IMG/VR virus record: IMGVR_UViG_3300038809_000021
Location: 71,782-94,093 of that record
Length of the DNA stretch: 22,312 nt
Source of the DNA: a virus
Reading direction: 5' to 3' (one strand)
The translations under genes and the position numbers were made by a program. Position 1 is the stretch's first letter, and each line of letters starts with the position of its first letter. Positions 3,127 to 21,247 of this stretch are shown here, piece after piece. Below the pieces are notes generated by a model. That model searched no databases and was not told the origin of the DNA. It was given only the letters and a program-made list of their open reading frames with translations.

Positions 3127-3159
3127 CCGATTACAATCCCGCACCCTGAGAAATACAAT
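3127..3159 (+). promoter_or_regulatory. Putative nrdA promoter (variant of the CC-N8-CC-N13-YAnnnT element)
   Basis: CCC at 3138-3140, then 13 nt, then TACAAT at 3154-3159. The upstream CC is shifted by 2 nt (3127-3128). Confidence 0.55.
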
Positions 3160-3200
3160 GGGTTGTGTTCACAGCCCATTTTCAATACTACATCTACGAA
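3153..3200 (+). promoter_or_regulatory. Tandem NrdR-box-like operators
   Basis: ATACAATGGGTTGTGT (3153-3168; 12/16 match to ACACWATATATWGTGT) and ATACTACATCTACGAA (3185-3200; 9/16), starting 32 bp apart directly upstream of nrdA. Confidence 0.5.
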
Positions 3201-3212
3201 GGACATTACCCC

Positions 3213-5477
3213 ATGCAGGTCGTCAAATCTGATGGCACCCGGCAAGACCTCGACATTTCCAAAATTCAGAAGCACGGAGCCTGGGCTTGCGAAGGGCTGA
3301 ACGTCAGCCAGTCCGAGTTCGAATGCAACATGCACCTCCAGTTCTTCGATGGCATGTCCACGAGCAACATCGCAGACGCACAGATTCAGACCGCAGCAAG
3401 CATGATCAGCCTCAAGAACCCGGACTACGACAAGGTTGCCGCCAAGTTCGTGATCCAGAAAATCTACAAGCAAGCAACCGGCGGGGGCATCGATTACCCT
3501 CACCTCTCTGTCACGCTGGGCAAAGGCGTTGGCTTCGGTCAGATCGACCCACGTCTGACTGACGGCCGCTTCAACCTCGACGTGCTGTCCGCAGCAATCG
3601 AGCCACAGCGCGACTTCATGTTCGGCTACCTGGGCATTCAAACCCTCGCTGACCGCTATCTTCTGACTGAACCGCTGACCACCGGCGGCACGAAGAAAAT
3701 CTACGAAATGCCGCAGCATCTGCTGATGCGCGTGGCAATGGGCTTGTCGATCAACGAAGACCGCCCGACCGAACGTGCCATCGAGTTCTACGATGTCATG
3801 AGTGAGCAAGAATACTTCCCATCTACGCCGACCCTGTTCAACTCGGGCACAACACGGCCGCAGATGTCGTCCTGCTACCTGGGCTTCGTACCCGATGACC
3901 TGAAAGACATCTTCGACTACGGCATCACCAAGAACGCGCTGCTGAGCAAGTTCGCAGGTGGTATCGGTACCGACTGGACTTCTGTGCGCGCCAACGGCAG
4001 CGTGATCAAGTCTACCAACGGTGTCAGCAAGGGCGTCGTCCCGTTTCTCAAGATTTTCAACGACACCGCAGTGGCTGTGAACCAGGGCGGCAAGCGCAAG
4101 GGCAGCTTCGCACCGTACCTCGAAATCTGGCACGCGGACTTCTTCGACTTCGCAGACTTGCGCTTGCAGACCGGCGACGACTACATGCGTACCCCGGACA
4201 TTCACCCGGCGTCGTGGATTCCTGACCTGTTCATGGAGCGCAAGCAAGCCGGCCTGGATTGGAGCTTCTTCTGCCCGAGCGATGTTCCTGACCTGCATGA
4301 CCTGCACGGCAAGGCTTTCGAGAAGGCATACGTCAAAGCCGAGAAGGCTGGCCTGGCTCGCAAGACTGTTCCGGCAATGGACGTCTGGAAGTACCTGCTC
4401 GACAAGCTCGTTCGCACCGGCTACCCCTGGATCAACTTCAAGGACGAGTGCAACCGCCGCAACCCGCAGTCTCACGTCGGCGTGATCCACAACAGCAACC
4501 TCTGCACTGAAATCACCCTGAACAACAGCCGCGATGAAATCGCAGTCTGCAACCTGGGCTCGATCATTCTGCCGAACATCAAAGGCAGCCAGCACATGAA
4601 GCGCGTGGTCAGCACCGCTATTCGCATGCTGGACAACGTGATCGATCTGAACCTGTACCCGGTCCCGGAAGCAGAGCGCAGCAACATGCGTCACCGCCCA
4701 ATCGGTCTGGGTGTGATGGGCTACCAGGAAATGATGGTTCAGAAAGACATCGCCTGGGACAGCCAAGATCACTTGCAGTTTGCGGACGAGCTGTTCGAAG
4801 AAATCTCCTACTACGCCATTCAGGCGTCGATGGAGCTGGCCAAAGTACGCGGTGCCTACGAAAGCTTCCCAGGTTCCAAGTGGAGCATGGGTCAGTTGCC
4901 GATTCACCACGCTCGTGATCAGAAGTGCAACGTGTTCGCCCGCATGGAGTGGGACATCCTGGGTGAAGAAGTCGCCAAGAATGGTATCCGCAACAGCAAC
5001 CTGATGGCGATCGCACCGACTGCCACCATCGCGAACATCATCGGCACGACTGAGTGCATTCAGCCGATCAACGAACGCGCCGTGATCAAAGAGAATCTGT
5101 CCGGCAACTTCACCTGGATCAACTCGCTTGAGAAGTACGGCAAGCCTGATCTGGTCAAGACGGTGTGGGAAATCGATCAGGTCTACAGCATCAAGGCCGC
5201 AGCGCGTCGTCAGAAGTGGATTTGCCAGTCGCAGTCGCTGAACATCTATCGCAAGAAGGAACACACCGGTCGCATCCTCGATCAGTGGTACACCCTTGCA
5301 TGGGAGCTGGGCGTCAAGACCACCTACTACCTCCGCAACCACAAGGAAGACGAAGCAGCCAAGTACCCGAAGCCAGACATGAACGTGCCGATCAAACTGC
5401 CGGTTGAACCGACCGTCTTCGATCAGCAGATCGCCGGCAACCAGGACGAAGCGTTTGTCTGCGAGGCTTGCCAGTAA
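3213..5477 (+). CDS. nrdA: Ribonucleoside-diphosphate reductase class Ia, alpha subunit
   Basis: N-terminal ATP cone (MQVVKSDG...), PSTPTLFNSGT, MSSCYL, NSNLCTEI (radical Cys), VCNLGSI, APTAT, KTTYYLR and C-terminal CEACQ. SD-like GAAGGA before ATG 3213. Confidence 0.97.
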   Translation: MQVVKSDGTRQDLDISKIQKHGAWACEGLNVSQSEFECNMHLQFFDGMSTSNIADAQIQTAASMISLKNPDYDKVAAKFVIQKIYKQATGGGIDYPHLSVTLGKGVGFGQIDPRLTDGRFNLDVLSAAIEPQRDFMFGYLGIQTLADRYLLTEPLTTGGTKKIYEMPQHLLMRVAMGLSINEDRPTERAIEFYDVMSEQEYFPSTPTLFNSGTTRPQMSSCYLGFVPDDLKDIFDYGITKNALLSKFAGGIGTDWTSVRANGSVIKSTNGVSKGVVPFLKIFNDTAVAVNQGGKRKGSFAPYLEIWHADFFDFADLRLQTGDDYMRTPDIHPASWIPDLFMERKQAGLDWSFFCPSDVPDLHDLHGKAFEKAYVKAEKAGLARKTVPAMDVWKYLLDKLVRTGYPWINFKDECNRRNPQSHVGVIHNSNLCTEITLNNSRDEIAVCNLGSIILPNIKGSQHMKRVVSTAIRMLDNVIDLNLYPVPEAERSNMRHRPIGLGVMGYQEMMVQKDIAWDSQDHLQFADELFEEISYYAIQASMELAKVRGAYESFPGSKWSMGQLPIHHARDQKCNVFARMEWDILGEEVAKNGIRNSNLMAIAPTATIANIIGTTECIQPINERAVIKENLSGNFTWINSLEKYGKPDLVKTVWEIDQVYSIKAAARRQKWICQSQSLNIYRKKEHTGRILDQWYTLAWELGVKTTYYLRNHKEDEAAKYPKPDMNVPIKLPVEPTVFDQQIAGNQDEAFVCEACQ

Positions 5478-5491
5478 ATCCTCACGCTGAC

Positions 5492-5522
5492 CCATGATGT
5501 CCCACACTTCGAGCGCTATTAT
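5492..5522 (+). promoter_or_regulatory. Putative phage promoter CC-N8-CC-N13-TATTAT
   Basis: CC atgatgtc CC acacttcgagcgc TATTAT. Confidence 0.6.
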
Positions 5523-5539
5523 TAGCGCTCGAATTCTTT
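5508..5539 (+). terminator. Intrinsic terminator-like hairpin after nrdA
   Basis: Perfect 11-bp stem TTCGAGCGCTA/TAGCGCTCGAA with a 4-nt loop, followed by TTCTTT. Confidence 0.6.
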
Positions 5540-5563
5540 CAAACACACGCAGCGAGACAAACG

Positions 5564-6487
5564 ATGTCCGAAGATAAGAAAGACGGCTTGCACTTCCGAC
5601 TTGAAGCGCATCAGGTGGACGAGAAGCTGGAAAGCGAAGAGTCCTGCTTTATGAAGCTCGATCGCCTGGGCGACCTTCTGAACAGTCCCGGCTCCATTCA
5701 GTACGAAATCTTGCAGAGCGCGAAGTACGGCCCGGTCGTCAAAGAAGCCACCAACAAGATGCTTCACGCAGCAGTTGATGGCGTCAACTTCGACACCGAT
5801 CCTGACCCGGCTTGCATCGAAGCAATGCACGAGCAAGTGGGCAAGGTCACAGCAGCCTACCTGGGCTTTGTCACCGAAGAAATCGGCCTGGCTTGCGTAG
5901 CAATGCAGGTGCTGGGCATGAAGAATTTGATCCAGTCCGTCGAAAGCTTCGACAAAGCCACCGGCGTGACGCCCGAGATTGCAGAGCGCCTGAAAGCAGC
6001 GCTTGCGAAGAACGGCAAGAACGACCAAATGCTGGCAGCGAAACCGCACCCAGCGTTCGGCAAGATCATGGCGGGCTGTCACCTGGCCGGCGGGTCGCAA
6101 GAAGCGTTTGCACACCGTCAAGCGTCAGTTCTGCACCGCATGCCCGATGTTGTGCGCAACAACCCCAACACGAGCGTCCCTACGCAGATTTGCGGGGCGA
6201 TCATGGAAATGATTAGCGAGCGTGCGATCACTTCCCAAATGATGCTGGGCATCACCATAGGGGTTCTCCAGTCGGTGCTTGCAGCGAAGCGTTTCACAGC
6301 ACTGCCGTTGATTGCGGACTGGCAGGCGCCGGTACCGCATATCGCGAAGAACATCCTGCTGATGGCTGAGCGTGTGATTCTCGACAAGGTGGACATGAAG
6401 AAAATGTCCAAGCACGTCGCAGATGATGCCATCGAGAAGATGATGAGCGCTGCAAGCCAGCAGCCGGGCAACGAGACCAAACACTGA
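5564..6487 (+). CDS. Hypothetical protein (helical)
   Basis: 307-aa ORF with matching codon usage; stop overlaps the next ATG. Confidence 0.8.
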   Translation: MSEDKKDGLHFRLEAHQVDEKLESEESCFMKLDRLGDLLNSPGSIQYEILQSAKYGPVVKEATNKMLHAAVDGVNFDTDPDPACIEAMHEQVGKVTAAYLGFVTEEIGLACVAMQVLGMKNLIQSVESFDKATGVTPEIAERLKAALAKNGKNDQMLAAKPHPAFGKIMAGCHLAGGSQEAFAHRQASVLHRMPDVVRNNPNTSVPTQICGAIMEMISERAITSQMMLGITIGVLQSVLAAKRFTALPLIADWQAPVPHIAKNILLMAERVILDKVDMKKMSKHVADDAIEKMMSAASQQPGNETKH

Positions 6488-7005
6488 TGAACAGCAAGCA
6501 GCGGAAACAAGCCGACAAGCTTCGTGCCGCTGCTTTGGACGGTCTTGAGTCCAAGCAGCAGGCAGTAGCTCTGGAAATTGAACGCCTTCAAGAGCTTCGC
6601 AAGGAGCAGGAGTGGTACGAGAAGGGCAGAACCGCAGCGGCTGACGTCGAGCGCAACGAGCGGGCACTCATGCGCCTGGAGCAGCACAAGACGCTGGCTC
6701 AGGAAGCAGAAGAGATTCATGGTCAAGCAACGACCGTTGCCGGTCTCTTCGCAGAGGTTGAAGTTCGGGAAGCTGAGCTTGAGCGTCGTCAGGAAATGCA
6801 CAAAGAAAACGTGGCGTCAGCAGCAGGTCAACTGGCCCAGCAACAGAAAGACCTTGATGCCCGCACAGTGCTGATCGAAATGGCCAACAAGCCGGTCAAG
6901 GAAACCATCAACGAGATTCTGATGCTGCTCGAACTGGAAGAGACGCCGGAAGAAATCGCGAAGATGGTTCGCAAGAAGCACAATATCCTGGAGCCGAAAT
7001 GGTAA
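6487..7005 (+). CDS. Coiled-coil protein with a conserved 43-aa C-terminal domain (paralog A)
   Basis: E/Q/A/R-rich helical body; last 43 aa align without gaps to those of the next gene. Confidence 0.8.
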   Translation: MNSKQRKQADKLRAAALDGLESKQQAVALEIERLQELRKEQEWYEKGRTAAADVERNERALMRLEQHKTLAQEAEEIHGQATTVAGLFAEVEVREAELERRQEMHKENVASAAGQLAQQQKDLDARTVLIEMANKPVKETINEILMLLELEETPEEIAKMVRKKHNILEPKW

Positions 7006-7400
7006 AGCCTCCTTTTGACCCGAGCGACCTCAAAACTCTGGCGCGTGCGCTGGAAGAAATCGAAGAGGTCACTAAAAAGGCCGCAGAAGCAGTGCGGTCT
7101 GCCTCTGATTACTGCGAAGAGGGTGAGGGTCACTACGACACCGGCGAAGAGTTCCGCAAAGAAGCCAAAGAGCTGCTGGACGAAGTAGAGCGCCGGGAGG
7201 CAGCGCTGGAAGAGAACCGTCGCTCTGTCGAACGTGACATCATCCGGGCAGAGGGTATGCTCGCCAAGATTGACCTCGCAAACAAGCCGGTGATCACCTT
7301 GCTCAACGATGTGCTGATGGCACTGGAGCTGGATGAATCGCCGGCAACAATCGCTGCGGAAATCCGCAGACAACACGCCTATCTCGACGCGAAATGGTGA
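6999..7400 (+). CDS. Coiled-coil protein with a conserved 43-aa C-terminal domain (paralog B)
   Basis: C-terminus IDLANKPVITLLNDVLMALELDESP...LDAKW matches paralog A at 21 of 43 positions. Confidence 0.8.
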   Translation: MVKPPFDPSDLKTLARALEEIEEVTKKAAEAVRSASDYCEEGEGHYDTGEEFRKEAKELLDEVERREAALEENRRSVERDIIRAEGMLAKIDLANKPVITLLNDVLMALELDESPATIAAEIRRQHAYLDAKW

Positions 7401-7403
7401 TCT

Positions 7404-7976
7404 ATGAAAATTGAAGAACCCCGCAAGCTTCTCACGCTGCAAAGCACCGGCGACGATGGTCGTCTTGAGGTTCGCTACGACACAATGGGCGAGCCGTTCC
7501 GTGAGGGCATCAGCCTGTCGCTTGAGCGCCCGAGCTACGATCAGTCGGCCAGCGTATTCATCGAAGGCTGGGAAGTTCGTGCGCTGCGTGACCTGCTGAA
7601 CAACATCGTGCCGGCCGGTCTGATCATGTCGAAAGACGCTTCCATCCTGACCACCATCGCAGATAAACTGGCCGCCGGTGTCGTGATCGAAGAAGCTGAT
7701 CGATCCTTCGCCGCGCAGAAAGTCCGCGACACCATCCCAATTCTAGATATGGCTGATGCCTACGCAGGCTCCCAGGAAGAGGTAGCCATCTGGAAAAAGC
7801 GTGCGCTCGAAGCAGAAGAAGTAATCCGTGAGCTGCCGACCGTTGAAATGGTTGTGCTGCAAGCGCAGAAGTACCGCCGGGCAACTCCTGAGAACCTGCC
7901 CAGCGAAGAAGCCGACCTCAAACACATGCTCGATGGTCTACCAACCGACATCGTGCCCGTAGTCAAGGAACAGTAA
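7404..7976 (+). CDS. Hypothetical protein
   Basis: 190-aa ORF; TAATG overlap with the nrdB start. Confidence 0.75.
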   Translation: MKIEEPRKLLTLQSTGDDGRLEVRYDTMGEPFREGISLSLERPSYDQSASVFIEGWEVRALRDLLNNIVPAGLIMSKDASILTTIADKLAAGVVIEEADRSFAAQKVRDTIPILDMADAYAGSQEEVAIWKKRALEAEEVIRELPTVEMVVLQAQKYRRATPENLPSEEADLKHMLDGLPTDIVPVVKEQ

Positions 7977-9022
7977 TGTCCAGCGCCATTATCACTCTCG
8001 ATCAACTGCCACCCGCAGAACGTCTTCGCTTCATCAGCCTGGCAGAACGTCGCATCATCGACGGCCCGCAGGACAAGCTGATGCAGATCAGCCCGGCCAA
8101 GTACCGCGAGCCGCTCGATATTCTCGACAAGGCTCTGCGTGACGACTGGAAACACTGGCACGTCAATCTGACCCAGGACCTGGCCGACTACCGCGAGCTG
8201 ATCAAGCAAGACCCCAAAGCTGCGACCGCCATTCAATGGGACTTGGGCTTCTTGTCCAACCTCGACGGCATCCAGCTCTGCACCCTGGCCAACAGCATCG
8301 GCCGCTACATCACCGCTCCTGAGTACCGGATGGCGATCGTTCGTCAGACCTACGAGGAAGAGGTTCACGTTCTGACCTACGACCGCATGATCACGTCGCT
8401 GGAAATGGACCCAATCGAAACCTATAACCTGTTCATGACTGACGAGCTGTTGCGCGCCAAGAACGAGCATATTATTCGAATGGCTGAAATCCTCGGCGAC
8501 GATTACTCGGGCGAGAACTTCGTCCGTGCAATTGCGGCGAACCAGGCTTTGGAAGGCATCTACTTCCAGTTCGGCTTCAAGCTGTTCTACGTGATCCACA
8601 AGCGCGGCAAGATGGGCGGCTGCGCCACCAACATCCGCTACATCCAGCGCGACGAAGCGTCACACCTGCGGTTGTTCAACAGCATGTGGCGTGGCGTGAA
8701 AGCTGAGCGCCCTGAACTGTTCACACCGACCGTGATCAACGACTGCCGTCAGGCTCTGATCGAAGCAGCCCGGATGGAAGTCGTTTGGGCCAAGCACATG
8801 ATCCAGGGCGGCATGCTGGGTCTGACCAACGACATCGCAGAAGGCACGATTCTGTTCGGCGCCAACGAGGTTGCAGCGAGCGTCGGTCTTGAGCCGCTGT
8901 TCCCAGAAGTGACACGCGATCCAATGGCCTGGACGAAGGACTACCTGAAAGAGAACGGCATCGAAACGAACTTCTTCGAAGCTAAGGTGCTCGAATATGA
9001 AGATAAAGCGTTAGAGTGGTAG
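7976..9022 (+). CDS. nrdB: Ribonucleoside-diphosphate reductase class Ia, beta subunit
   Basis: Metal ligands LSNLDGIQ, YEEEVH, LEGIYF and RDEASH; radical Tyr in HVLTY; C-terminal NFFEAKVLEY. Confidence 0.95.
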   Translation: MSSAIITLDQLPPAERLRFISLAERRIIDGPQDKLMQISPAKYREPLDILDKALRDDWKHWHVNLTQDLADYRELIKQDPKAATAIQWDLGFLSNLDGIQLCTLANSIGRYITAPEYRMAIVRQTYEEEVHVLTYDRMITSLEMDPIETYNLFMTDELLRAKNEHIIRMAEILGDDYSGENFVRAIAANQALEGIYFQFGFKLFYVIHKRGKMGGCATNIRYIQRDEASHLRLFNSMWRGVKAERPELFTPTVINDCRQALIEAARMEVVWAKHMIQGGMLGLTNDIAEGTILFGANEVAASVGLEPLFPEVTRDPMAWTKDYLKENGIETNFFEAKVLEYEDKALEW

Positions 9023-9028
9023 CAGAAA

Positions 9029-9589
9029 ATGCCAGCTAAAAGAAAGCTGGTGCAAGGAGTGGGCGTCAATGACGCCCCTTTCTCTGTACCCACCAACGAC
9101 CCGATCTACCGTTCTTGGCTGAGAATGCTTTATCGTTGCTATGGCCCTCCTACAGTCCAAAGCGCCTCATACGTCGGCTGCACAGTTGAGCCGGCATGGC
9201 ACAGCTTCATGAATTTCAGAGAGTGGGTGCTGACCCAAGACTGGGAAGGCAACCAGCTCGACAAAGACCTTCTGGTTCCGGGCAACAAGGTGTACGGGCC
9301 GCTGCGTTGCTGTTTCGTCCCTCGCTACATCAACATGATCGGCCCACGTCTGCACACCCCATGTGTCAAACGCGAACCAAGAGGCAAACCCTGGGGCGCA
9401 CGCATCAATGCCAATGGGAAGTTCGTCTGGCTCGGCTCGTTCAACACAGAGCAAGAAGCAATCGACGCATGGAAGAAAGCGCGGTCAGAAGACGTGCTGA
9501 GACTGCTGTCCCGGTACCAGCTTGAGTCGAAGAAGCCTGACTCAAGAGTGGTGATCGCGTTACGTGCGGTGGCAGCAGGTCTAGTCTGA
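9029..9589 (+). CDS. HNH-AP2 homing endonuclease
   Basis: GVGVND, YRSWLRMLYRCY, W..F..FREW, LDKDLL..GNKVYGP..CCFVP..IN, then AP2-like WGARINANGKFVWLGSFNTEQEA. Confidence 0.88.
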   Translation: MPAKRKLVQGVGVNDAPFSVPTNDPIYRSWLRMLYRCYGPPTVQSASYVGCTVEPAWHSFMNFREWVLTQDWEGNQLDKDLLVPGNKVYGPLRCCFVPRYINMIGPRLHTPCVKREPRGKPWGARINANGKFVWLGSFNTEQEAIDAWKKARSEDVLRLLSRYQLESKKPDSRVVIALRAVAAGLV

Positions 9590-9635
9590 ATGGTAAAGTT
9601 AATGTGCCATCACGGCACAATAACTGGAGAGTGTA

Positions 9636-9812
9636 ATGGTCATCGCAAGAATTAACGTCATTGTCCTGCTCATTGCAATGGCGTTCTTTATCGAGCAGGG
9701 CATGTACTGGGGCTTCAATCTGATGCCGGGTAGTGATCGTGAGCTATTAGCTGACGGTTTCAACCTGATTCTGTTGGCATTGGCGTACCAAACACCCCGG
9801 AAAGTGATCTGA
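9636..9812 (+). CDS. Small membrane protein, 58 aa (absent from the ORF track)
   Basis: GGAGA SD followed by ATG 9636. Translates to MVIARINVIVLLIAMAFFIEQGMYWGFNLMPGSDRELLADGFNLILLALAYQTPRKVI*, with two hydrophobic segments. Confidence 0.75.
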   Translation: MVIARINVIVLLIAMAFFIEQGMYWGFNLMPGSDRELLADGFNLILLALAYQTPRKVI

Positions 9813-9827
9813 ACGTAAAATCGCCGC

Positions 9828-9852
9828 CGAAAATTTAGCGCGGAAATTTTCG
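9828..9852 (+). terminator. Hairpin or palindrome downstream of the small membrane gene
   Basis: 9-bp inverted repeat CGAAAATTT-agcgcgg-AAATTTTCG; AT-rich and without a clear U-tract. Confidence 0.3.
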
Positions 9853-9868
9853 TCCCTTACACAGCCGA

Positions 9869-9899
9869 CCAGATAGTCCCTGTCAGAGCGCGATATAGT
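9869..9899 (+). promoter_or_regulatory. Putative phage promoter CC-N8-CC-N13-TATAGT
   Basis: CC agatagtc CC tgtcagagcgcga TATAGT. Confidence 0.6.
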
Positions 9900-9930
9900 G
9901 AATCATCTAAATCGCGTTCTTTCAGGGACT
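9875..9930 (+). promoter_or_regulatory. Long imperfect hairpin covering the probable RBS of the gene at 9936
   Basis: Pairings AGTCCCTG/CAGGGACT, AGAGCGCGAT/ATCGCGTTCT and TAG/CTA. The right arm contains AGGGA just upstream of ATG 9936. Confidence 0.55.
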
Positions 9931-9935
9931 TCTTT

Positions 9936-12245: not shown

Positions 12246-12248
12246 CCA

Positions 12249-12917: not shown

Positions 12918-13504
12918 AGCTGATCGGTCTAACTGGCGCACACGGCACCGGCAAGACCACCCTGGCAGCGAAAGCTGCTGGGGAGTTCGGCTGGGAGTTC
13001 GCGAAAACTGACGTCTCCGGCGTCTATCTCAAGCAGGGTCTGGATCCACGCGAAAGCATGAGCCTGATCACTCGCCTGTCGGTGCAGCAGGAGATTCTTG
13101 ATCTGCACCGCGAGCAGTGGAATCAACTGCGCAGGGTTTGCCCGACAGACCACGTTGTCGTGACAGACCGCACGCCGTACTGCTTCATCGCCTTCATGCT
13201 GGCCGAAATCAGTGGCTACGGGAAGCTGAACCCGGTGCAGGACGCAGCAGTCGTCAACTACGTGAACGAGTGCCATCAGGTAGCGGAAGAGCTGTTCGAT
13301 ATGGTCTGCTACATCCCGCGCTCGATCCCGTTCGTCCCGGCTACTCACAAGGTGCAAGCTGTGGCGAGTGAGGCGTACCGTGAACACTGGGATATGCTGA
13401 TCCAGGGCATTCTCTTTGGTCGCGCACCCAATCACTGGGAAATCAGCGCGGTGAACATCGAAGATCGACTGAAAGAGCTGAGTGCCGTCGCTTCTGCCGT
13501 GTAA
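12914..13504 (+). CDS. P-loop nucleotide kinase (AAA_28/dNMP-kinase-like)
   Basis: Walker A GAHGTGKTT near the N-terminus and VVTDRT (DR motif of nucleotide kinases). Confidence 0.8.
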   Translation: MKLIGLTGAHGTGKTTLAAKAAGEFGWEFAKTDVSGVYLKQGLDPRESMSLITRLSVQQEILDLHREQWNQLRRVCPTDHVVVTDRTPYCFIAFMLAEISGYGKLNPVQDAAVVNYVNECHQVAEELFDMVCYIPRSIPFVPATHKVQAVASEAYREHWDMLIQGILFGRAPNHWEISAVNIEDRLKELSAVASAV

Positions 13505-13527
13505 GCCCGCAACACAAATGACAGACT
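13497..13527 (+). promoter_or_regulatory. Putative phage promoter CC-N8-CC-N13-CAGACT
   Basis: CC gtgtaagc CC gcaacacaaatga CAGACT; the -10 hexamer is weaker than at other sites. Confidence 0.45.
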
Positions 13528-13553
13528 GTCTCTCACAAGAGCAGTCTGTTTTT
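13521..13553 (+). terminator. Intrinsic terminator after the thyA-kinase cluster
   Basis: ACAGACTG(T)CTCT-caca-AGAGCAGTCTGT followed by a T-run. Confidence 0.65.
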
Positions 13554-13574
13554 ATTGACGAGAGGAAAGTGGGA

Positions 13575-13925
13575 ATGAATCGCAAGCGTCGTATAGCAGC
13601 CAGTGTTTTGGCAATCATGGTTGGCTACGGTCTCTACCTCTGGGTCAATGGTGAAGAGAAGCCCAAGCAGGACATGAATGACCGGATCATCGCTCAAACT
13701 GTCAAGTGCGTATCGGCCGGCCTGGAGCCAGAAATTGAGCGCACCAATGCCGTCTTCGGCGTCTCTGATCAGTTCATCGTCGTCTGCAAGCCACCTGGCG
13801 GCAAAGAATCGAATCTGGATCGCATGATGCGTCAGATGGGTCTGCCGGAGCGCGGGTCTGTGAAGAAGCAGGAGCCAACCGTCAACACTGAAAGCTTTGA
13901 ATACAAACAGAAAAGGACCGAATGA
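13575..13925 (+). CDS. Membrane-anchored hypothetical protein
   Basis: GAGGA SD; MNRKRR followed by one TM helix; Cys pair in the soluble part. Confidence 0.75.
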   Translation: MNRKRRIAASVLAIMVGYGLYLWVNGEEKPKQDMNDRIIAQTVKCVSAGLEPEIERTNAVFGVSDQFIVVCKPPGGKESNLDRMMRQMGLPERGSVKKQEPTVNTESFEYKQKRTE

Positions 13926-14122
13926 TGAAAAAGTTTCTTGCAACTGCGGGCGTCGTTGTCGTGTTTCTCCTGATTGCAGCCGCTGTCACCGCCGGTGTTC
14001 GCTATTTCAGCAGCGTGACGACTCGCCTGGACGTGCTGACGCCGAAGCCGGGTGTCGAGTGTGTTCTCGCTTCCACTGCCGATGGCGCCGCCCTGGCCTG
14101 CAACTGGAGTACGCCGAAGTGA
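13922..14122 (+). CDS. Small membrane-anchored protein
   Basis: MMKK followed by a hydrophobic helix; PKPGVEC...LACNW Cys pair. Confidence 0.75.
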   Translation: MMKKFLATAGVVVVFLLIAAAVTAGVRYFSSVTTRLDVLTPKPGVECVLASTADGAALACNWSTPK

Positions 14123-14544: not shown

Positions 14545-14984
14545 GCGGGCGGGAAGAACGCAGCGCACGCATGCACCAGCGACTTGAGCGGGAAGCGCAG
14601 CGACAGCGCACCGAGTACATCAAGTCGCTGGAGAGCGAGCTGCAAGCGCTCAAAGCCCTGGTCTGGGCCGCTGTCGAAGACCAGATGGATCACGTCAATG
14701 TTCACCCGTGCGACGAACACAGCGAAGACGTCAAAGCGCGGGGAATGCCACCCGTTTATCAGGAACTGTACAAGGCGGTCAAAATGCAGGCAGATAACAA
14801 ACCGCTTTCGATTCACTTCAACGCTGACAGCGTGACAATCGAAGGCATCACCTATTCGAACGACATGTTCCGCCAGTTCGGCGGGCTCATGCCGCTCAAT
14901 CAGACCTTCCGTCTGGTGCAGCGCAGCACCGGTATCAGCTCGGGGAGCATCACCGTCGAGTACGTGGATCAGGAGAAGAAATGA
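14541..14984 (+). CDS. Hypothetical protein
   Basis: GTGA overlap start; N-terminal coiled coil. Confidence 0.7.
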   Translation: MSGREERSARMHQRLEREAQRQRTEYIKSLESELQALKALVWAAVEDQMDHVNVHPCDEHSEDVKARGMPPVYQELYKAVKMQADNKPLSIHFNADSVTIEGITYSNDMFRQFGGLMPLNQTFRLVQRSTGISSGSITVEYVDQEKK

Positions 14985-15172
14985 AGCGACTGCTGGTTGT
15001 ACGCTTCCCAAATGGCACCTGGAGCTATGGCGGGAAAGAATCGGACCCGGATTATAAGCATTGCGAGAAATACTGGGTAGAAACCAACAAGTCCAGTCTT
15101 GAGCCAAAGCAGGCCATCAAGATTGCGCAGGGTCGCCGATCACGGGCGAAGAAGGCTGAACATGGCGATTGA
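14981..15172 (+). CDS. Small basic hypothetical protein
   Basis: 63 aa; GGAG SD; ATGA overlap. Confidence 0.7.
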   Translation: MKRLLVVRFPNGTWSYGGKESDPDYKHCEKYWVETNKSSLEPKQAIKIAQGRRSRAKKAEHGD

Positions 15173-15578
15173 AATCAAAATCGACGACGCGGTGATCCAG
15201 AAGCTGGCCGACGAAGCAGTTCAGCGGGCGGTGAAGTCCACCGTTGAAAGCTCGTCGGTCATCAAGCAGGCTGTCGAGAAAGCGATCGCCAGCGTGAAGA
15301 TCGACACTAAGCAAATCGAAGACGCCGTAACCCAGTCGATCAAGGACGTCACCAGCAACCCGGCGTTCCTGAATGACCTGGTTCGAGCAGCGATCTTGAA
15401 GGGCGCTGACAAGCTGACCGGCTCGTTCGACGCCAGCCTGCGCGCAGCAGGCAAGAAACTCGCAATGGATCCAGACACGCTTGAAGAGGTGGCCGCTGGC
15501 GTCAAAGCGAAACTATCCGTCGAAGCACAAGAACGCCTGGCTGACTACGAAGCCAAAGGCATGGGAAAATTTGCATGA
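15162..15578 (+). CDS. Hypothetical helical protein with degenerate C-terminal tag MGKFA
   Basis: Starts MAIEIKIDD; Ala/Lys-rich helices. Confidence 0.75.
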   Translation: MAIEIKIDDAVIQKLADEAVQRAVKSTVESSSVIKQAVEKAIASVKIDTKQIEDAVTQSIKDVTSNPAFLNDLVRAAILKGADKLTGSFDASLRAAGKKLAMDPDTLEEVAAGVKAKLSVEAQERLADYEAKGMGKFA

Positions 15579-16021
15579 AAAAGTTCGTGGACAAAGTGTC
15601 GAGACTGGAAGGGAAAGCCAAGCGCAAGCTGCTGCAAAAGCAGGCGCGTGAGCATGATCGCCAGGCCCGCAAGTTTCGCCAAGACGCAATGAAGCTGGGC
15701 TGTGAGCTGGCAGTAGCAGGTGAGAATCTCTACAACAAGCACCATCCGGTCTACGAAGAGCTGATCATGCCTTTGCTGGATGAAGCAGCTCGACTGGCCA
15801 ACAAGTACGGCTTCAACGTGCTGTATCAGACGCACACTCCGCTGCCGGGTCAGCCTATGTACAGCCACGCAATCGGTAGCATGGACAGTCGCACTGTCAC
15901 GCCAACCATGAAGGCTTGCGTCGATCTGATCCAGGCTCGCCCGAAGCTGAGCAGCACTGCCGCTGAGCTGATCACTGACCGTGCAGAGCCAGCACCGAAG
16001 AGCGATACTGACGCAACGTAA
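15575..16021 (+). CDS. Hypothetical protein
   Basis: 148 aa; ATGA overlap. Confidence 0.7.
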   Translation: MKKFVDKVSRLEGKAKRKLLQKQAREHDRQARKFRQDAMKLGCELAVAGENLYNKHHPVYEELIMPLLDEAARLANKYGFNVLYQTHTPLPGQPMYSHAIGSMDSRTVTPTMKACVDLIQARPKLSSTAAELITDRAEPAPKSDTDAT

Positions 16022-16036
16022 TAAAGCGAGAAGGTC

Positions 16037-16468
16037 ATGACCGATCAACCAACAGTGGAAGAAGAGCTTCTCCGTAAAGCGGGCGAAGCTCTTTCGTGGC
16101 TTGCAAACGAGCGCGAGCGTGGGTCGATCACCAAAGAGGCGTACATCGCTGCTCTCCAGGCTTTCGATATGATCTGCCTGGGTTTGGTGCCGACTGAGTA
16201 CAGCGACTGGGCCAAAGGTGAGCGCGACAAGGCAAGCATCGAAATCCCGGACAGCGTGTTGATGCGCAAGCTCAACCGTCTCGTTCGGGTGTCTCTGCGC
16301 CGCAAGATGGGTGAAATCAAGATCACGACGATTGACCCTGACGTTGGCGCGCATCATAAATTCCTGCAATTCGAAGACGAACTCGATCCCATCAAGGCTG
16401 CGTGCAAGCGCTACCCGAAGGTGATCGATAAGCTTTGGGATGCCGGGTTCAGGCAGGTGATGGAATGA
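16037..16468 (+). CDS. Hypothetical protein
   Basis: 143 aa; GAGAAGG upstream of the ATG. Confidence 0.75.
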   Translation: MTDQPTVEEELLRKAGEALSWLANERERGSITKEAYIAALQAFDMICLGLVPTEYSDWAKGERDKASIEIPDSVLMRKLNRLVRVSLRRKMGEIKITTIDPDVGAHHKFLQFEDELDPIKAACKRYPKVIDKLWDAGFRQVME

Positions 16469-17031
16469 AGCCGTTGATCATTGCAGTGGGTGACATCGAG
16501 ACCACAGGTTTCAAGCAGGAAGATGGGCATCGAATCATCGAAATCGCACTGAGCTTTTTCCAGTACGACCAGACGATTCACACGCATCACAAGATCGGCA
16601 AGACCTGGGTCCAGCGAATCAATCCGCATCGCCCGATCGATCCCGGCGCCGAAGCAGTTCACAAGATCAGCCTGGCCATGCTGCGCGGTGCGCCCAAGTG
16701 GGAAGATGTCGCGCCCACAGTGAGCGAGCTGCTGAGCAAGACCGATCTGTTCGTGGCGCACAACGCCGACTTCGATGCTCCCTGGATCGCGCTTGAGCTG
16801 ATCCGAGTCAAGCAGCCCATGCCGACGTTCAACGTGTTCTGCACCATGCAGAACGGTCGAGCAGCGACACCGATGGGTAAAGTGCCCAACCTGGGCGAGC
16901 TGGCCTACGCATGTGGGTTCGATTACGACCCGGATGCAGCGCACAGTGCCAAGTACGACACCGACTTGCTCGCCCAATGCTATTGGAAAGGCATTGAAAT
17001 GAAGATGTTTCCCCGCCCAACCGATCTTTGA
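16465..17031 (+). CDS. DEDDh 3'-5' exonuclease (DnaQ/Pol III epsilon-like)
   Basis: ExoI DIETTG, HRIIEIA, ExoII VAHNADFD and ExoIII AHSAKYD. Confidence 0.92.
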   Translation: MKPLIIAVGDIETTGFKQEDGHRIIEIALSFFQYDQTIHTHHKIGKTWVQRINPHRPIDPGAEAVHKISLAMLRGAPKWEDVAPTVSELLSKTDLFVAHNADFDAPWIALELIRVKQPMPTFNVFCTMQNGRAATPMGKVPNLGELAYACGFDYDPDAAHSAKYDTDLLAQCYWKGIEMKMFPRPTDL

Positions 17032-17034
17032 ACG

Positions 17035-17065
17035 CCACACTATGCCTGTCACGACAGCGCATAGT
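17035..17065 (+). promoter_or_regulatory. Putative phage promoter CC-N8-CC-N13-CATAGT inside the 17037-17067 inverted repeat
   Basis: CC acactatg CC tgtcacgacagcg CATAGT; shares CCTGTCA...ATAGTG with the 9869 site. Confidence 0.55.
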
Positions 17066-17100
17066 GTCTCTACAGAACAGCGCAGCATCAGGAGAAAACG

Positions 17101-17592
17101 ATGTTTATCTACCAAGCACCCGATGGTCGCGGACTCAACAAGTCGGCCTGGGAGAAACACAAAGACGATTCCGACTGGACCGTCAAAGAATTCCGCAACG
17201 ACAAAATCTGGGTGCGCCTGCACTGGATCGGCCGCTACAAGAAAGACCTGCCATCTGAGTATCGTCACTCGCACGGCATCACTGTCTACAACCGCGTCAA
17301 GGTCAAGGGTAGCGAGTGGGCCGAAGAAGGAACCACAGTCGATAAGGGCTGGATCATCGATCCAACCGGTACCCAAACTGCGCGCACGAAGTCGGCGGCG
17401 ATCACGTTGTACGAAGATATGCTGCTGAGCTATGCCGGCGCCAGTCTTGAAGAAGACGAAGATGGCGACCTTGTGCTTGTCGAGACAGGCAATCAGCTCA
17501 AGCCGGTGGTTCTAGGGTCGAAGCTGATCATGGATGAAGAACAGGTAGCAGCCGCTGCGGAGAAAGGCGTCGATCTTGGCGGGTGGTCTTGA
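17101..17592 (+). CDS. Hypothetical protein with C-terminal LGGWS tag
   Basis: AGGAGA SD; 163 aa; ends ...EKGVDLGGWS*. Confidence 0.8.
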   Translation: MFIYQAPDGRGLNKSAWEKHKDDSDWTVKEFRNDKIWVRLHWIGRYKKDLPSEYRHSHGITVYNRVKVKGSEWAEEGTTVDKGWIIDPTGTQTARTKSAAITLYEDMLLSYAGASLEEDEDGDLVLVETGNQLKPVVLGSKLIMDEEQVAAAAEKGVDLGGWS

Positions 17593-18173
17593 GCAGGCAC
17601 TTTGAATTGGAAGACGTCCCAAGTTACTTGAGACGTTTTCCTGTGCTGAAAGACAAGGCAGTCATTGCGCAGGGTGAGTATTCAGTGGTGTTCGAGGGCA
17701 CGCGCCCCGATACAGTGTTGAAGCTCACCTGTGACCATATCAGCGCATCATTCGCAAGACAGCACGGAAGCCCAACGTTCTGTCCGGTGCTTGAGTATCA
17801 CGGCCAGATGGACAGCTTTGATCACGGCCCGGTAATGCTTCTCGAACTGCCAAGACTGCGTGAGCTGTCCTGGGATGAAGATCGCAAGATGTTCATGGAG
17901 CGAGACATGGTGATGGCCGCAGCCAAGTTCCTGATCGCAGAGAGCGAGCAGTTCAATGGCATCGTGGACTGTCAGCAGTGTCACGCAAGCGCACTGGAAG
18001 ACCTCGCTGACAGCGGCATCGTCAGCAACAGCGTCCGACAGGGGCTGAACACGCTGGCCAACTGGATGAGAAAGACAGCGCACGATGTCATGGTGGACAT
18101 CTGCAACCCGAACAACTTTATGACAGATGGTCACCACCTGATCATCACTGATCCAATCAACCCGGTTCTCTGA
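17583..18173 (+). CDS. T7 gp0.7-like Ser/Thr protein kinase
   Basis: Gly-loop IAQGEYSVVF, beta3 Lys in VLKL, catalytic loop DICNPNNFM (DxxxxN), and LIITDP in place of DFG. Start may be TTG 17589. Confidence 0.7.
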   Translation: MVLSRHFELEDVPSYLRRFPVLKDKAVIAQGEYSVVFEGTRPDTVLKLTCDHISASFARQHGSPTFCPVLEYHGQMDSFDHGPVMLLELPRLRELSWDEDRKMFMERDMVMAAAKFLIAESEQFNGIVDCQQCHASALEDLADSGIVSNSVRQGLNTLANWMRKTAHDVMVDICNPNNFMTDGHHLIITDPINPVL

Positions 18174-18190
18174 AAAAGCCCGTCCTATTG

Positions 18191-18221
18191 CCACACATCG
18201 CCGTGTGAGCGTCTGTAATAT
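18191..18221 (+). promoter_or_regulatory. Putative phage promoter CC-N8-CC-N13-TAATAT
   Basis: CC acacatcg CC gtgtgagcgtctg TAATAT, followed by a perfect 10-bp-stem hairpin at 18229-18258. Confidence 0.6.
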
Positions 18222-18293
18222 CAACTCTATCGAAGCGCGACATTTACAGCGCTTCGATTTAACACTCAATCATAAACTTTGCAGGTGAATCAC

Positions 18294-19094
18294 ATGGCAC
18301 GCGCCGCTCTCAAGAAAGTCGAAGATGCTCCAGAAGACACCGTGACCGGCGGCGTCGAAGAACTGGTTCTGAACCAACCTCAAAACCCAGAAGACCTGGA
18401 CGCCATGTTCAGCGAGCTGGAAAACGAACTCGAAAGCGCCGGTGTGAACACGACCGCCGTCATCCCTTCGAACGACAACGAAGCCGACCACATCGCTGCC
18501 GGCCGTCACATCAGCACCGAAGAGCTGAAAGCCAAAGCTCTCGAAGAACTGGAAGAGCAGTCGAAGCCACTGTCTGACGAGTCCCGCAAGCCGGAACCTC
18601 AGAAGAAAAAGGCTCCTGCTACCAAACGCATCAGCACGCTGGGTCTGACCGTCAGCCAAGCGCTCGCCCAGGGTCTGGGTTCGAAGCTCGATGAACTGCT
18701 GACGCTCGACGTTGCCGACCTGTCGCTGAGCGATGAAGACGCCCACGCGAAGCGTCACGAGCTGATGGCCAAGCTCGACGACAAGCTGCCCAAGAAGATC
18801 GGCGAGAAAGTCGTCAATCTCTTCGCCAGCATCGCCAAAGGTGCGAACCTGTCCACCTACACCCGGATCGCAATCGATCTGCTGGTCAAGGACGGCGAAA
18901 TGACCAGCAAGACGCTGAAAGACCAGTACATCGCCCGCCCGTACAGCGAAGGCACGGCCAGCAGCCAGGCGACACAGATGATGAACCTGCTGCCACTGCT
19001 GGGCATCGCCCGCAAAGAAGCCGGGAAGATCGTGCTGAACGACACCAGCTTGCTGCTGCCAATGCTGACTGCGCCAGCACCAGAAGCAGAGTAA
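18294..19094 (+). CDS. Hypothetical protein with acidic disordered N-terminus and possible winged-helix C-terminal domain
   Basis: AGGTGA SD before ATG 18294; strongly biased codon usage; helical C-terminal part ending in a beta-hairpin-like GIARKEAGKIVLN. Confidence 0.8.
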   Translation: MARAALKKVEDAPEDTVTGGVEELVLNQPQNPEDLDAMFSELENELESAGVNTTAVIPSNDNEADHIAAGRHISTEELKAKALEELEEQSKPLSDESRKPEPQKKKAPATKRISTLGLTVSQALAQGLGSKLDELLTLDVADLSLSDEDAHAKRHELMAKLDDKLPKKIGEKVVNLFASIAKGANLSTYTRIAIDLLVKDGEMTSKTLKDQYIARPYSEGTASSQATQMMNLLPLLGIARKEAGKIVLNDTSLLLPMLTAPAPEAE

Positions 19095-19106
19095 TCCACC
19101 AGCAAC

Positions 19107-19137
19107 AGAAGAGCCTGCTTGATTGCGGGCTTTTCTT
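19107..19137 (+). terminator. Intrinsic terminator
   Basis: AGAAGAGCCTGC-ttgatt-GCGGGCTTTTCTT directly after the stop at 19094. Confidence 0.7.
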
Positions 19138-19147
19138 GGAGACGAAA

Positions 19148-19360
19148 ATGTCCACAGAAGAATGCAATGCCGACGTTTACAAACATGGCGGAATCGTAGG
19201 CGTGTTCGACATGCCAAAGGAAGAAGCCGAAGCAGCCTGCAAGAAAGCAACTGAGGAATCCGGCTGCTTGCACGATTGGCACTACGTGGGCGGCCGGGTT
19301 GTCGTCAAAGCGCTGCCGAAAGGCTTCTACAACAAAAAGCCAGAGAGTCCCTGGGCATGA
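19148..19360 (+). CDS. Small hypothetical protein
   Basis: GGAGA SD; 70 aa; contains DWHYVGGRVVVK; ends ESPWA. Confidence 0.75.
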   Translation: MSTEECNADVYKHGGIVGVFDMPKEEAEAACKKATEESGCLHDWHYVGGRVVVKALPKGFYNKKPESPWA

Positions 19361-19914
19361 AAAATCCATTTGCGCCATATCCGTTCCCTAAGCTGACTTG
19401 CGAACTCGTCCCATCTTCTTTGTGGGGCGAGAATCTGCGCAGCTTACTAACCGCCGGCCAGTGGAAAGAGCTGCGCACGGCTTGCTACGTCCGCGCAGGT
19501 CATAAATGCGAAATCTGCGGTGGTGTTGGCAAGGCCCACCCCGTCGAAGCGCATGAAATCTGGCACTACAACGACCAGGAGCGCAGACAGACCTTGATGG
19601 GGCTGATCGCGCTGTGCCCGGCCTGCCACAAGTGCAAGCATATGGGGTTCGCCCAAGCTACCGGAATGCTTGAGGTGTCCATGAAACATATGAGCCACGT
19701 CAACAAGTGGCCGAAAGAATTGGTCGAGGCGTATGTCATGCGGGAGTTTGAAATACACCGGCTTCGTGACCAGCTAAAGTGGACTGTCGATACGAGCTGG
19801 CTCGCAGACGCAGACAGCTACATCAAAGAAGCTGAAAAAGTCTCGAAGGCAGCGCGTACAGAAGCGCTCACAGCGCTGATGAAGTCAAAGCGCAACACTG
19901 ACGCGACGACATAG
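19357..19914 (+). CDS. Zn-binding HNH-family nuclease
   Basis: CEICG...EAHEIW...LIALCPACHKCKH, a His-Me finger with two CxxC pairs; ATGA overlap start. Confidence 0.8.
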   Translation: MKNPFAPYPFPKLTCELVPSSLWGENLRSLLTAGQWKELRTACYVRAGHKCEICGGVGKAHPVEAHEIWHYNDQERRQTLMGLIALCPACHKCKHMGFAQATGMLEVSMKHMSHVNKWPKELVEAYVMREFEIHRLRDQLKWTVDTSWLADADSYIKEAEKVSKAARTEALTALMKSKRNTDATT

Positions 19915-19951
19915 CGAACGCAGCTCACAACGCAGCACAGCGAGCGGGCGC

Positions 19952-19982
19952 CCACGTTCATCCAGCTCTCGCTCGCTACAAT
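19952..19982 (+). promoter_or_regulatory. Putative phage promoter CC-N8-CC-N13-TACAAT
   Basis: CC acgttcat CC agctctcgctcgc TACAAT; overlaps the AGCGAGCG/CGCTCGCT inverted repeat at 19939-19977. Confidence 0.6.
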
Positions 19983-20010
19983 GCAAGTCAGCAAGCAGAG
20001 AGACTTCCCA

Positions 20011-20343
20011 ATGAGCAGAGACTGGGATCCAAGAGAAGAAGATCGAGCCATCAAGCGAGCGCTTATGAGCAGCAAGCAGCGCGATGGGCTCGACAAGTTC
20101 CTGGCCGAGAAGAAAGCGAAAGTCGCCAGCGTGATGGATCGTTTCCAGACCCGGTGTCAGAAGTGCGACGTCACCAGCGGCAAGACGAAGATTTGGCACA
20201 CAGACGACGGCTATCTGTGTGGTCGATGCCTCCCCGAAGGCGTGACACCAGCGCAACTGCTTCAAGAGAAAGAGGCTCAGAAAGAGCATCTGGAAGCCGA
20301 AGCAGAGAAACCAAAACCAGACAGCTACGGTGAATGGGCATGA
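20011..20343 (+). CDS. Zinc-finger protein with C-terminal YGEWA tag
   Basis: CQKC...CGRC. ATG 20011 is preferred because ATG 19981 overlaps the putative -10 box. Confidence 0.75.
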   Translation: MSRDWDPREEDRAIKRALMSSKQRDGLDKFLAEKKAKVASVMDRFQTRCQKCDVTSGKTKIWHTDDGYLCGRCLPEGVTPAQLLQEKEAQKEHLEAEAEKPKPDSYGEWA

Positions 20344-20570
20344 CCAGTCCCTACAAAAAGATTCTCGATCCAGACTTCGACTATGAAGAGGACGGCCGCT
20401 TCAAAGCGCAGCTCAAGTCTGCCATCGAAGAGCGCATCGAAGAAATGGCTCGCATCAAAGCGGGCGGTGTTCGACCTCCTTTGAGAGTCACGATCAAAGG
20501 CACTCCCTTCATCGACCCGGACACCATAGCAGCAGTTGAAATGCCGGAGGACTTTGGCAAATGGGCTTGA
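20340..20570 (+). CDS. Small hypothetical protein with C-terminal FGKWA tag
   Basis: ATGA overlap; 76 aa. Confidence 0.75.
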   Translation: MTSPYKKILDPDFDYEEDGRFKAQLKSAIEERIEEMARIKAGGVRPPLRVTIKGTPFIDPDTIAAVEMPEDFGKWA

Positions 20571-20809
20571 AAGGTAGTGAGCGGGACTGGCGTGCGCTGG
20601 TCCTGGAAATGATGGCTGACGGCATCAACGAGGAAAACTGCAAGAAGCTGATGAAGGACTTCGAAGATATGGAGCTGACGCCGCGCAAAGCGGTGCAGGT
20701 CTATCGCAAGGCTCTTGACACGCACGTCAAGAACCGGGCAAAGGAGGAAAAGAAGGCTGCTGTAGAGGCGGCTATCCCACGACCAGATGTATTCGGCAAA
20801 TGGTCATAA
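20561..20809 (+). CDS. Small hypothetical protein with C-terminal FGKWS tag
   Basis: GGAGG 10 nt upstream of ATG 20561; 82 aa. Confidence 0.75.
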   Translation: MGLKGSERDWRALVLEMMADGINEENCKKLMKDFEDMELTPRKAVQVYRKALDTHVKNRAKEEKKAAVEAAIPRPDVFGKWS

Positions 20810-20822
20810 CCCAGAGGTAAAC

Positions 20823-21224
20823 ATGCACGCACTCAAATCGCTCTTCCATCTGCTGGTCTTTGTATCCGGCCTCAGTATCGTCGGTCGCCTGGCTGGTCTC
20901 ACCTGGGACTGCTTCTTCTACGACGAGAACTGGACCACCACGCTGAACTTCGCAGCCTACACCGTGATGGCCGGTCTTGGCGCCGCAGTGCTGTGCGAGA
21001 ACCTTCTGGTTCATATCAGCTCCAGTACCGCCGTGAAGAAGGCTCAGACCCGGGCCGAAATTCGCCAGGAAATCATGCAAGAGATTCATCGCGAAGCCAC
21101 GAAGAAGGCTTTCGAGCAGGCGCTGGTCGATCGACAGGCTGATCACCGCCGGGCGCAGATGAAGGGCACGCTGCCGACCGTCGAAGAAATCATGCAAGCG
21201 GGCAAAGAAGACAAGCCCAAGTAA
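20823..21224 (+). CDS. Two-TM membrane protein with coiled-coil tail
   Basis: GAGGT SD; two hydrophobic segments followed by a charged helix. Confidence 0.75.
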   Translation: MHALKSLFHLLVFVSGLSIVGRLAGLTWDCFFYDENWTTTLNFAAYTVMAGLGAAVLCENLLVHISSSTAVKKAQTRAEIRQEIMQEIHREATKKAFEQALVDRQADHRRAQMKGTLPTVEEIMQAGKEDKPK

Positions 21225-21247
21225 ACCCAGCATCGCAGCAGTAAAAT
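21217..21247 (+). promoter_or_regulatory. Putative phage promoter CC-N8-CC-N13-TAAAAT
   Basis: CC aagtaaac CC agcatcgcagcag TAAAAT; the -10 sits at the centre of the 21235-21256 inverted repeat. Confidence 0.6.

Follow-up and report, generated by a model that had tools for sequence, protein, structure and literature searches.

The locus and its phage relatives

The DNA analyzed here (the window, 22,312 nucleotides) is the final 22.3 kb of a 94-kb viral contig, IMG/VR record IMGVR_UViG_3300038809_000021. The window contains nrdA, nrdB, thyA, a dihydrofolate reductase gene and numerous small genes, and nearly all genes lie on the + strand. In the gaps between these genes recurs a short element, CC-N8-CC-N13-YAnnnT, which an earlier reading of the sequence (the original prediction) had put forward as a candidate new class of phage promoter, and it is this CC-box element that we have examined. 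Its identity to Pseudomonas phage hairong is 87%. Identity is lower, at about 75%, to nickie, phiK7B1, ZY21 and Nican01, phages of the genus Nickievirus, which are 112-kb siphoviruses that infect Pseudomonas syringae. These phages are of the virulent type. An IMG/VR search for further relatives returned only nickie itself, and the searchable papers that name these phages do not discuss their promoters.

Genes were called across the whole contig by use of a codon model trained on the hairong genes and the gaps were then listed. Positions are those of the window unless given as contig positions. The count of ten gaps longer than 40 nt given by the original prediction proved roughly right, in that the gene calls gave 13 such gaps of which about three are probably coding. 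The seven sites reported within the gaps were all recovered with the positions and sequences described, six of the seven opening with CCA.

The CC-box element is enriched between genes and has fixed spacing

The window contains 11 matches to CC-N8-CC-N13-YAnnnT, each of them on the + strand, versus 2.89 expected (standard deviation 1.9), and none of 100 shuffles reached 11. When only the intergenic DNA of the window was considered there were seven matches versus 0.12 expected (0 of 2000 dinucleotide shuffles). As the motif had been derived post hoc from these same sites, the original prediction had proposed intergenic DNA outside the window as an independent test of enrichment. Such DNA of the same contig gave three exact matches versus 0.24 expected (2 of 2000 dinucleotide shuffles), and when the 43-72 kb module outside the window was considered the three intergenic matches compared with 0.12 expected (0 of 2000 shuffles). 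The intergenic DNA of nickie gave nine matches versus 0.17 expected and that of phiK7B1 gave eight versus 0.155. There were no minus-strand intergenic matches in the whole contig.

The spacing of the element was assessed by scans of all possible spacings. In the gaps outside the window the CC-CC distance peaked at 8-10 and the CC-TAnnnT distance at 13-15, and the nickie and phiK7B1 scans gave sharp peaks at 8 and 13, with CC-N8-CC counts of 25 (nickie) and 24 (phiK7B1) over a background of about 5. Peaks at these two spacings were found in four data sets, and the gaps of the structural module gave no CC-CC or CC-TAnnnT peak. When each gap was anchored on its best -10 hexamer and C residues were ignored in the anchoring, the C maxima still fell at -15/-14 and -26/-25 from the hexamer. 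The enrichment outside the window and in nickie and phiK7B1, together with the spacing scans, thus lifted the caveat of post hoc derivation.

Three features that had played no part in the selection of sites also emerged. An A residue follows each CC in 50-80% of the sites, the base preceding the first box is G or C but never T, and the hexamer positions left free by the pattern still follow TATAAT. These give the refined motif (G/C)CCA-N6-(G/C)CC(A/T)-N12-TAtaaT, which contains a direct repeat of 10-bp period. If the hexamer is taken as -12 to -7, the boxes are centered at about -37 and -27, with box 1, (G/C)CCA, at about -38 to -35 and box 2, (G/C)CC(A/T), at about -28 to -25. The two boxes are therefore one helical turn apart, as had been predicted, and the CC-N8-CC peak at 8 bears this out. 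The absence of a good -35 element had also been claimed and withstood both inspection of the hexamers at 16-18 bp, where none of the seven window sites has a TTG-type sequence, and a generic sigma70 scan, which picked up none of the seven. The hexamers are located 34-81 nt upstream of start codons.

Conservation falls on the boxes and the hexamer

Seven promoters of this phage were compared with their nickie orthologs. Identity was highest at the fixed hexamer positions (95%) and the four C positions (93%), followed by the free hexamer positions (76%), the other bases of the interval between box 1 and the hexamer (53%) and the flanks (42-44%).

Several observations weigh against reading the matches as promoters. 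The pattern has an information content of only about 13 bits, coding DNA across the contig contains 12 + strand matches to it and one further match (contig 1623) sits in unrelated repeats. These three are what would be expected if a loose motif assembled after the fact were an artefact of chance or composition. In addition, the hexamers of several sites are weak (CAGACT, CATACT and TATCGT), and the relatives are few and phylogenetically linked, such that counts from different phages are not independent events. Against an artefact stand the sharpness of the spacing peaks, conservation exactly at the C positions and a 12- to 60-fold excess of matches relative to dinucleotide shuffles, seen in four intergenic data sets that include DNA new to the original prediction. 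We judge this explanation, which we consider extremely improbable, to be already refuted. The element is almost certainly real and conserved.

That the element constitutes a promoter class is, on the sequence evidence, very likely. Enrichment, strand specificity, co-orientation with genes, fixed spacing, conservation, the behavior of the free hexamer positions and restriction to one module of the genome (see below) all support this reading, and none of the computational tests capable of refuting it did so.

Two putative promoter classes occupy different genome modules

Hairong has 18 exact sites, all of which lie between 41 and 105 kb, and its packaging and structural module is devoid of them. 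The CC-box motif is thus restricted to the replication, nucleotide-metabolism and small-gene module, where the sites are co-oriented with the genes. Another, sigma70-like class, aCG-CTTGCA-N17-TAnnnT, takes its place in, and is confined to, the early region (contig 150-7000; hairong 102.9-112.8 kb), and its sites are often preceded by A/T-rich DNA. Sites of this CTTGCA class, all outside the window, were found at contig 203, 402, 1484, 3008 and 15623 on the + strand and at 217 and 6950 on the - strand. So a canonical -35 is used where unmodified host polymerase must act, and the module of replication, nucleotide-metabolism and small genes relies on the CCA boxes. The presence of an early class with a canonical -35 and of a CCA class in another module suggests temporal control by a phage product.

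Four CTTGCA-class copies are arranged in tandem ahead of the first early gene (510-1085). Comparison of contig 2740-3066 with hairong 105.8-109.2 kb shows that some ten small early genes of hairong (hairong_153 to 162) are missing from this contig, one of them encoding a ParB-like protein and another a 'host nuclease inhibitor'. A 9-mer, CCTTACACA, is present in five copies, all intergenic, versus a roughly estimated chance expectation of 0.7. Three of these (contig 1597, 1633 and 1669, + strand) are spaced at a 36-bp period within a 638-nt non-coding gap of the early region, a fourth is at contig 6934 (- strand) and the fifth (window 9855-9863) lies just 5' of the CC-box site at 9869, where it is kept in nickie and phiK7B1. 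The copies may be iterons or regulator sites.

In the structural module there are no CCA boxes and no sites of the CTTGCA class. The gaps of this module at contig 21921-21993, 28365-28409, 35898-35943 and 40890-40975 hold -10-like hexamers, for example CATATAATG and GCTATACTG, and from such sequences a third, late promoter class may exist in this module.

The individual sites and their hairpins

The seven window sites are exact + strand matches to the pattern. The first, CCA-N7-CCC-N13-TATTAT (5492-5522), is a candidate promoter 41 nt before the ATG at 5564, and hairong, nickie and phiK7B1 all retain its boxes and hexamer. A perfect hairpin with an 11-bp stem (5508-5533, + strand; folding free energy dG -18.9, z -2.9) has the TATTAT hexamer in its loop and is followed by TTCTTTC. 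The candidate at 9869-9899, CCA-N7-CCC-N13-TATAGT, is within a long hairpin (9875-9930; dG -35, z -7.3) and has orthologous sites in hairong, nickie and phiK7B1. The site at 13497-13527 has the weak hexamer CAGACT and a first box that overlaps the end of the upstream gene. Although its CC boxes are kept in all four phages (the N13 interior varies), CAGACT doubles as the 5' arm of a hairpin that, together with the T-run after it (13521-13556), resembles a terminator. This counts against initiation there, and the site is the least certain promoter among the seven.

Two candidates share CCACAC-N4-CC. The one at 17035-17065 has CATAGT 13 bp downstream, in the 3' arm of a hairpin (17036-17067), and its nickie ortholog has a changed spacer interior with boxes and hexamer retained. 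The other, at 18191-18221, has TAATAT at the same distance and no hairpin over the hexamer; its leader contains a separate hairpin with a 10-bp stem (18229-18258), and the nickie and phiK7B1 orthologs read CCACGCACTGCC / CCACACTCTGCC-N13-TATAGT. In the candidate CCACGT-N4-CC-N13-TACAAT (19952-19982), which precedes a gene that probably starts at 20011, the boxes fall in the loop and 3' arm of a hairpin (19939-19977). The orthologs of this site retain CC-N8-CC-N13 with the hexamer TAGAAT in nickie and TAAAAT in phiK7B1, and the pairing is also kept (AGTCTG/CAGACT in nickie, AGACTG/CAGTCT in phiK7B1). The last candidate, CCA-N7-CCCAG-N11-TAAAAT (21217-21247), has its hexamer in the loop of a hairpin at 21235-21256 (z -3.8), and hairong retains the boxes with the hexamer TAGCAT.

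The original prediction had also described an atypical variant in the nrdA gap, and inspection of the sequence (3127-3159, + strand) bore out CCC-N13-TACAAT at 3138-3159 with an upstream CC that is 10 nt away rather than 8. Neither nickie nor phiK7B1 retains the proximal CCC, and membership of this variant in the class is therefore doubtful. Outside the window, the pattern search gave exact intergenic matches at contig 48874, 50002 and 52550 (+ strand), and inspection of the gaps gave near matches with box 2 exactly 13 bp from hexamers at contig 46279, 54698, 56859 and 68148. The 88-105 kb region of hairong, which is missing from the contig, contributes six or more further sites that are non-orthologous, among them CCACACCCTTCC-N13-TATAAT and CCACGTCATGCC-N13-TATAAT.

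The sequence TCAAAC is about eightfold enriched in + strand intergenic DNA (14 copies in 7.3 kb versus 21 in 86.8 kb of coding DNA) and is found, often twice, in leaders that follow CC-box promoters (window 5539-5544 and 21271-21276; contig 52595, 52608, 56890 and 68162).

At about half of the sites a strong hairpin takes in the -10 hexamer, either in its loop or within one of its arms, as is also true of the hexamers at contig 48899, 52575 and 56859 outside the window. At hexamers 54698 and 68148 the hairpin is instead upstream and its 3' arm supplies box 2, and there is no hairpin over the contig hexamers 46279 and 50027. Pairing in the cobT-gap hairpin is maintained by compensatory changes, the arms being GGGGC/GCCCC in this phage, GGGAGC/GCTCCC in nickie and GGGGAC/GTCCCC in phiK7B1.

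The 5492 cassette with its 5508-5533 hairpin is nearly identical in phiK7B1 although the product of the downstream gene is only 27% identical. In related strains detected in wastewater runs, other sequence replaces the gene that lies immediately after the 13497 cassette (13574-13981), the gene at 20334-20570 is likewise replaced (20343-20535), and the replacement breakpoints coincide with gene and cassette borders. The wastewater runs are labelled 'metagenomic RNA-Seq' but are available as assembled contigs and probably derive from DNA, and among the listed runs that contain the phage none is recorded as RNA. These gene swaps and the near identity of the 5492 cassette suggest cassette-mediated gene shuffling, as judged from the sequences compared.

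These properties raise the possibility that the hairpin cassettes serve mainly purposes other than initiation: formation or processing of 3' ends, binding of a phage DNA-binding protein (e.g. a repressor) or recombination in the manner of the PeSL cassettes of T4-type phages, the hexamers being merely AT-rich loops. The position of hexamers in hairpins, the compensatory changes, the swaps exactly at cassette borders and the phiK7B1 cassette are all in keeping with this view. It does not account for the boxes, which hold their register with the hexamer and not with the hairpins, the positions of which vary among sites and orthologs. Moreover, the hexamers of several sites are not covered by a hairpin, the hexamer positions left free by the pattern conform to TATAAT, and in most of the -10-spanning hairpins box 2 is outside the stem. 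The two roles are also compatible, as PeSLs are themselves promoter-terminator composites (PMC4122927). Hence, we regard a function mainly other than initiation as quite improbable.

Given this register, the gaps of the promoter-class reading can be viewed as compact cassettes composed of a terminator (or 3' end) and a promoter. The hairpins probably end or stabilize the upstream transcript, to judge from their sequences. A transcription start about 7 nt past the hexamer would fall in the 3' arm, in which case the hairpin could fold only in transcripts that read through from upstream.

Two further sources of the boxes were considered and rejected. The boxes could have been by-products of the hairpin stems, which the register argues against, or have resulted from coding constraint due to a shared C-terminal tag, but they mostly lie past the stop codon.

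Relation to known promoter classes

The original prediction had invoked T4 middle promoters and P1 late (Lpa) promoters as precedents and had overlooked the conserved hairpins that contain hexamers, the position of the 13497 site within a terminator-like hairpin and lambda CII as a nearer analogue. CII is an activator of the promoters PRE, PI and PaQ, which have no good -35 element but a direct repeat that spans the -35 region, and their -10 elements are poor. The repeat reads TTGC-N6-TTGC (PMC2629481). The CC-box element is similarly a short direct repeat of 10-bp period that straddles the -35 position. It differs in having CCA rather than TTGC, in having good -10 hexamers and in its numbers, about 20 promoters versus three lysogeny promoters, and no CII homolog was found in this phage.

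In T4 middle promoters the MotA element, with the box (a/t)(a/t)(a/t)TGCTTtA, lies 12 +/- 1 bp upstream of the -10 (PMC2988021). The likeness to the CC-box element extends to a good or excellent sigma70 -10 (TAnnnT), to a phage-specific element in place of the -35, to use of the host polymerase without a phage sigma factor and to transcription of replication and nucleotide-metabolism genes after an early class that has a canonical -35. In the CC-box element 12-13 bp separate the end of the proximal box, CC(A/T), from the hexamer, although this shared feature is one of architecture only. The T4 promoters have a single MotA box and TGCTT, whereas the phage studied here has two direct-repeat boxes, (G/C)CCA, without TGCTT, and neither a MotA C-terminal domain nor an AsiA homolog was detected. 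By analogy of architecture, the lambda CII promoters would be a closer counterpart than those of P1 Lpa and a closer match than T4 middle promoters. On the sequence comparisons, the class would seem to work like the T4 MotA and lambda CII promoters and to belong to neither family.

Canonical sigma70 promoters, including the CTTGCA-N17-TAnnnT class of this phage, share the -10 consensus of the CC-box element, which has no TTG-type hexamer at 16-18 bp but instead conserved C-rich boxes at 13 and 23 bp. The PeSLs are cassettes of stem-loop plus promoter that recur between genes and mark gene-swap borders (PMC2839356, PMC4122927). The short intergenic stem-loop/promoter cassettes found here are alike in these respects and also lie at gene-swap borders. 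However, PeSLs carry early canonical sigma70 promoters, whereas the cassettes of this phage lack a -35, have CCA boxes and often have the -10 within a hairpin loop.

The search for a factor that may read the boxes

Searches for sigma70 regions 2 and 4 (PF04542 and PF04545) gave no matches in the contig or in complete hairong or complete nickie, although highly diverged sigma-like proteins are possible, and no phage RNA polymerase or sigma factor is annotated in hairong. With neither a phage sigma factor nor a phage RNA polymerase in evidence, host polymerase together with a phage early protein is the simplest reading, in keeping with the original prediction of a sigma70-type -10 combined with an upstream element read by a further factor. 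The class probably needs a factor beyond plain recognition of a -35 by sigma70, and this factor would most likely be phage-encoded.

The known activators were sought in the same three genomes. The MotA C-terminal domain and AsiA (PF09158 and PF09010) gave nothing at E <= 1, with very distant homologs being possible, and CII (PF05269) had no match. Among the early proteins Pfam recognized TerB alone, and PHROGs gave only HslV-like, HNH and TerB (tellurite resistance) families, apart from a single weak entry for a 'transcriptional regulator' that fell on the TerB protein. Searches of PDB sequences with four early proteins gave nothing useful.

One early protein, P0001, was considered as a candidate. 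It is encoded outside the window (contig 3066-3671, + strand) by a gene that sits behind a CTTGCA-class promoter, has 201 residues and an isoelectric point of 9.4, corresponds to hairong_163 and is conserved with nickie. The N-terminal stretch appears AP2-like by eye, and AP2 clusters are among the neighbors of the protein in the ESM Atlas (score 0.90). The AlphaFold model (pLDDT, the predicted local distance difference test, 80.7) has two sheet-plus-helix modules, the AP2/ERF domain being a three-stranded sheet with a helix. When residues 10-81 were compared by VIA-align, one of the four best rows was the PfSIP2 AP2-DNA complex 6sy0 (Z 5.7, root-mean-square deviation 3.9, 59 residues aligned) and the other three were Toxoplasma mitoribosome chains (Z 5.6-6.5), all four being below the level that stands out from chance. 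A viral fold library gave weak matches to the DNA-binding parts of homing endonucleases, and P0001 has no nuclease domain. The Pfam AP2 family (PF00847) did not match P0001, nor any protein of the contig, hairong or nickie. An alignment profile of P0001 gave no AP2 match among PDB sequences, and Foldseek of the model gave no significant match in the PDB. P0001 may, although this is unlikely, be a stand-alone AP2-like DNA-binding activator that acts on the tandem CCA boxes to recruit or re-target host sigma70 RNA polymerase. If so, it would represent a novel type of phage-encoded transcription activator that acts in the manner of MotA or CII by means of an unrelated fold and defines the middle regulon.

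The promoters could also be real and the CCA boxes be read by a host protein, which could be an alternative sigma factor or else an activator of P. syringae put to use by the phage. That the searches for a phage factor identified none is a point in favor of such a host reader and against a phage-encoded one. The CC spacing signal is also absent from Stenotrophomonas phage BUCTxx99, a distant relative (DnaE 40% identical) from another host genus. Given this absence the class looks limited to one genus, as far as the genomes compared can indicate, and a host-specific factor is possible, which would fit a host protein equally well. On the other side, the phage has a separate early class with a canonical -35, which suggests temporal control by the phage, and to our knowledge the upstream boxes match no host sigma consensus. 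We therefore consider a host reader rather improbable.

Specific host factors were compared with the sites. The hrp box of HrpL has GGAACC 15-16 nt before CCAC, and no GGAAC(C) was seen upstream of CCAC in the site flanks inspected. The CCCCAT-like box of sigma32 would be wrongly placed, and for sigma54 both strand and spacing are wrong.

A model for the CC-box promoters

The reading we favor, and hold to be likely from the sequence evidence, is that of a distinct, genus-wide, middle-type promoter class of Nickievirus-type P. syringae phages that depends on host RNA polymerase plus a phage factor. In this model the -10 would be bound by the host RNA polymerase holoenzyme via sigma70 region 2, and a phage-encoded early protein would occupy both boxes on one face of the helix and supply the upstream contact normally made by sigma region 4 with the -35. 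The replication, nucleotide-metabolism and small-gene module would thereby be switched on after the CTTGCA-class early genes, with each gap acting as a compact terminator-promoter cassette. The motif, its fixed spacing, enrichment and conservation and its restriction to one module are shown by the sequences, whereas we infer where transcription starts, that a factor is required and which protein this is.

Phage elements that replace the -35, those of sigma appropriation by T4 MotA/AsiA and of lambda CII, have each revealed a new means of re-programming bacterial RNA polymerase. The CC-box element would be a so far undescribed conserved class of about 20 promoters per genome, and it predicts a regulator of host RNA polymerase for which exact test sites are given. 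For a genus in which most genes are 'hypothetical' it would provide a map of transcription units and, for Pseudomonas, infection-inducible promoter parts. The phages that carry the element are under development for biocontrol of kiwifruit and cherry canker.

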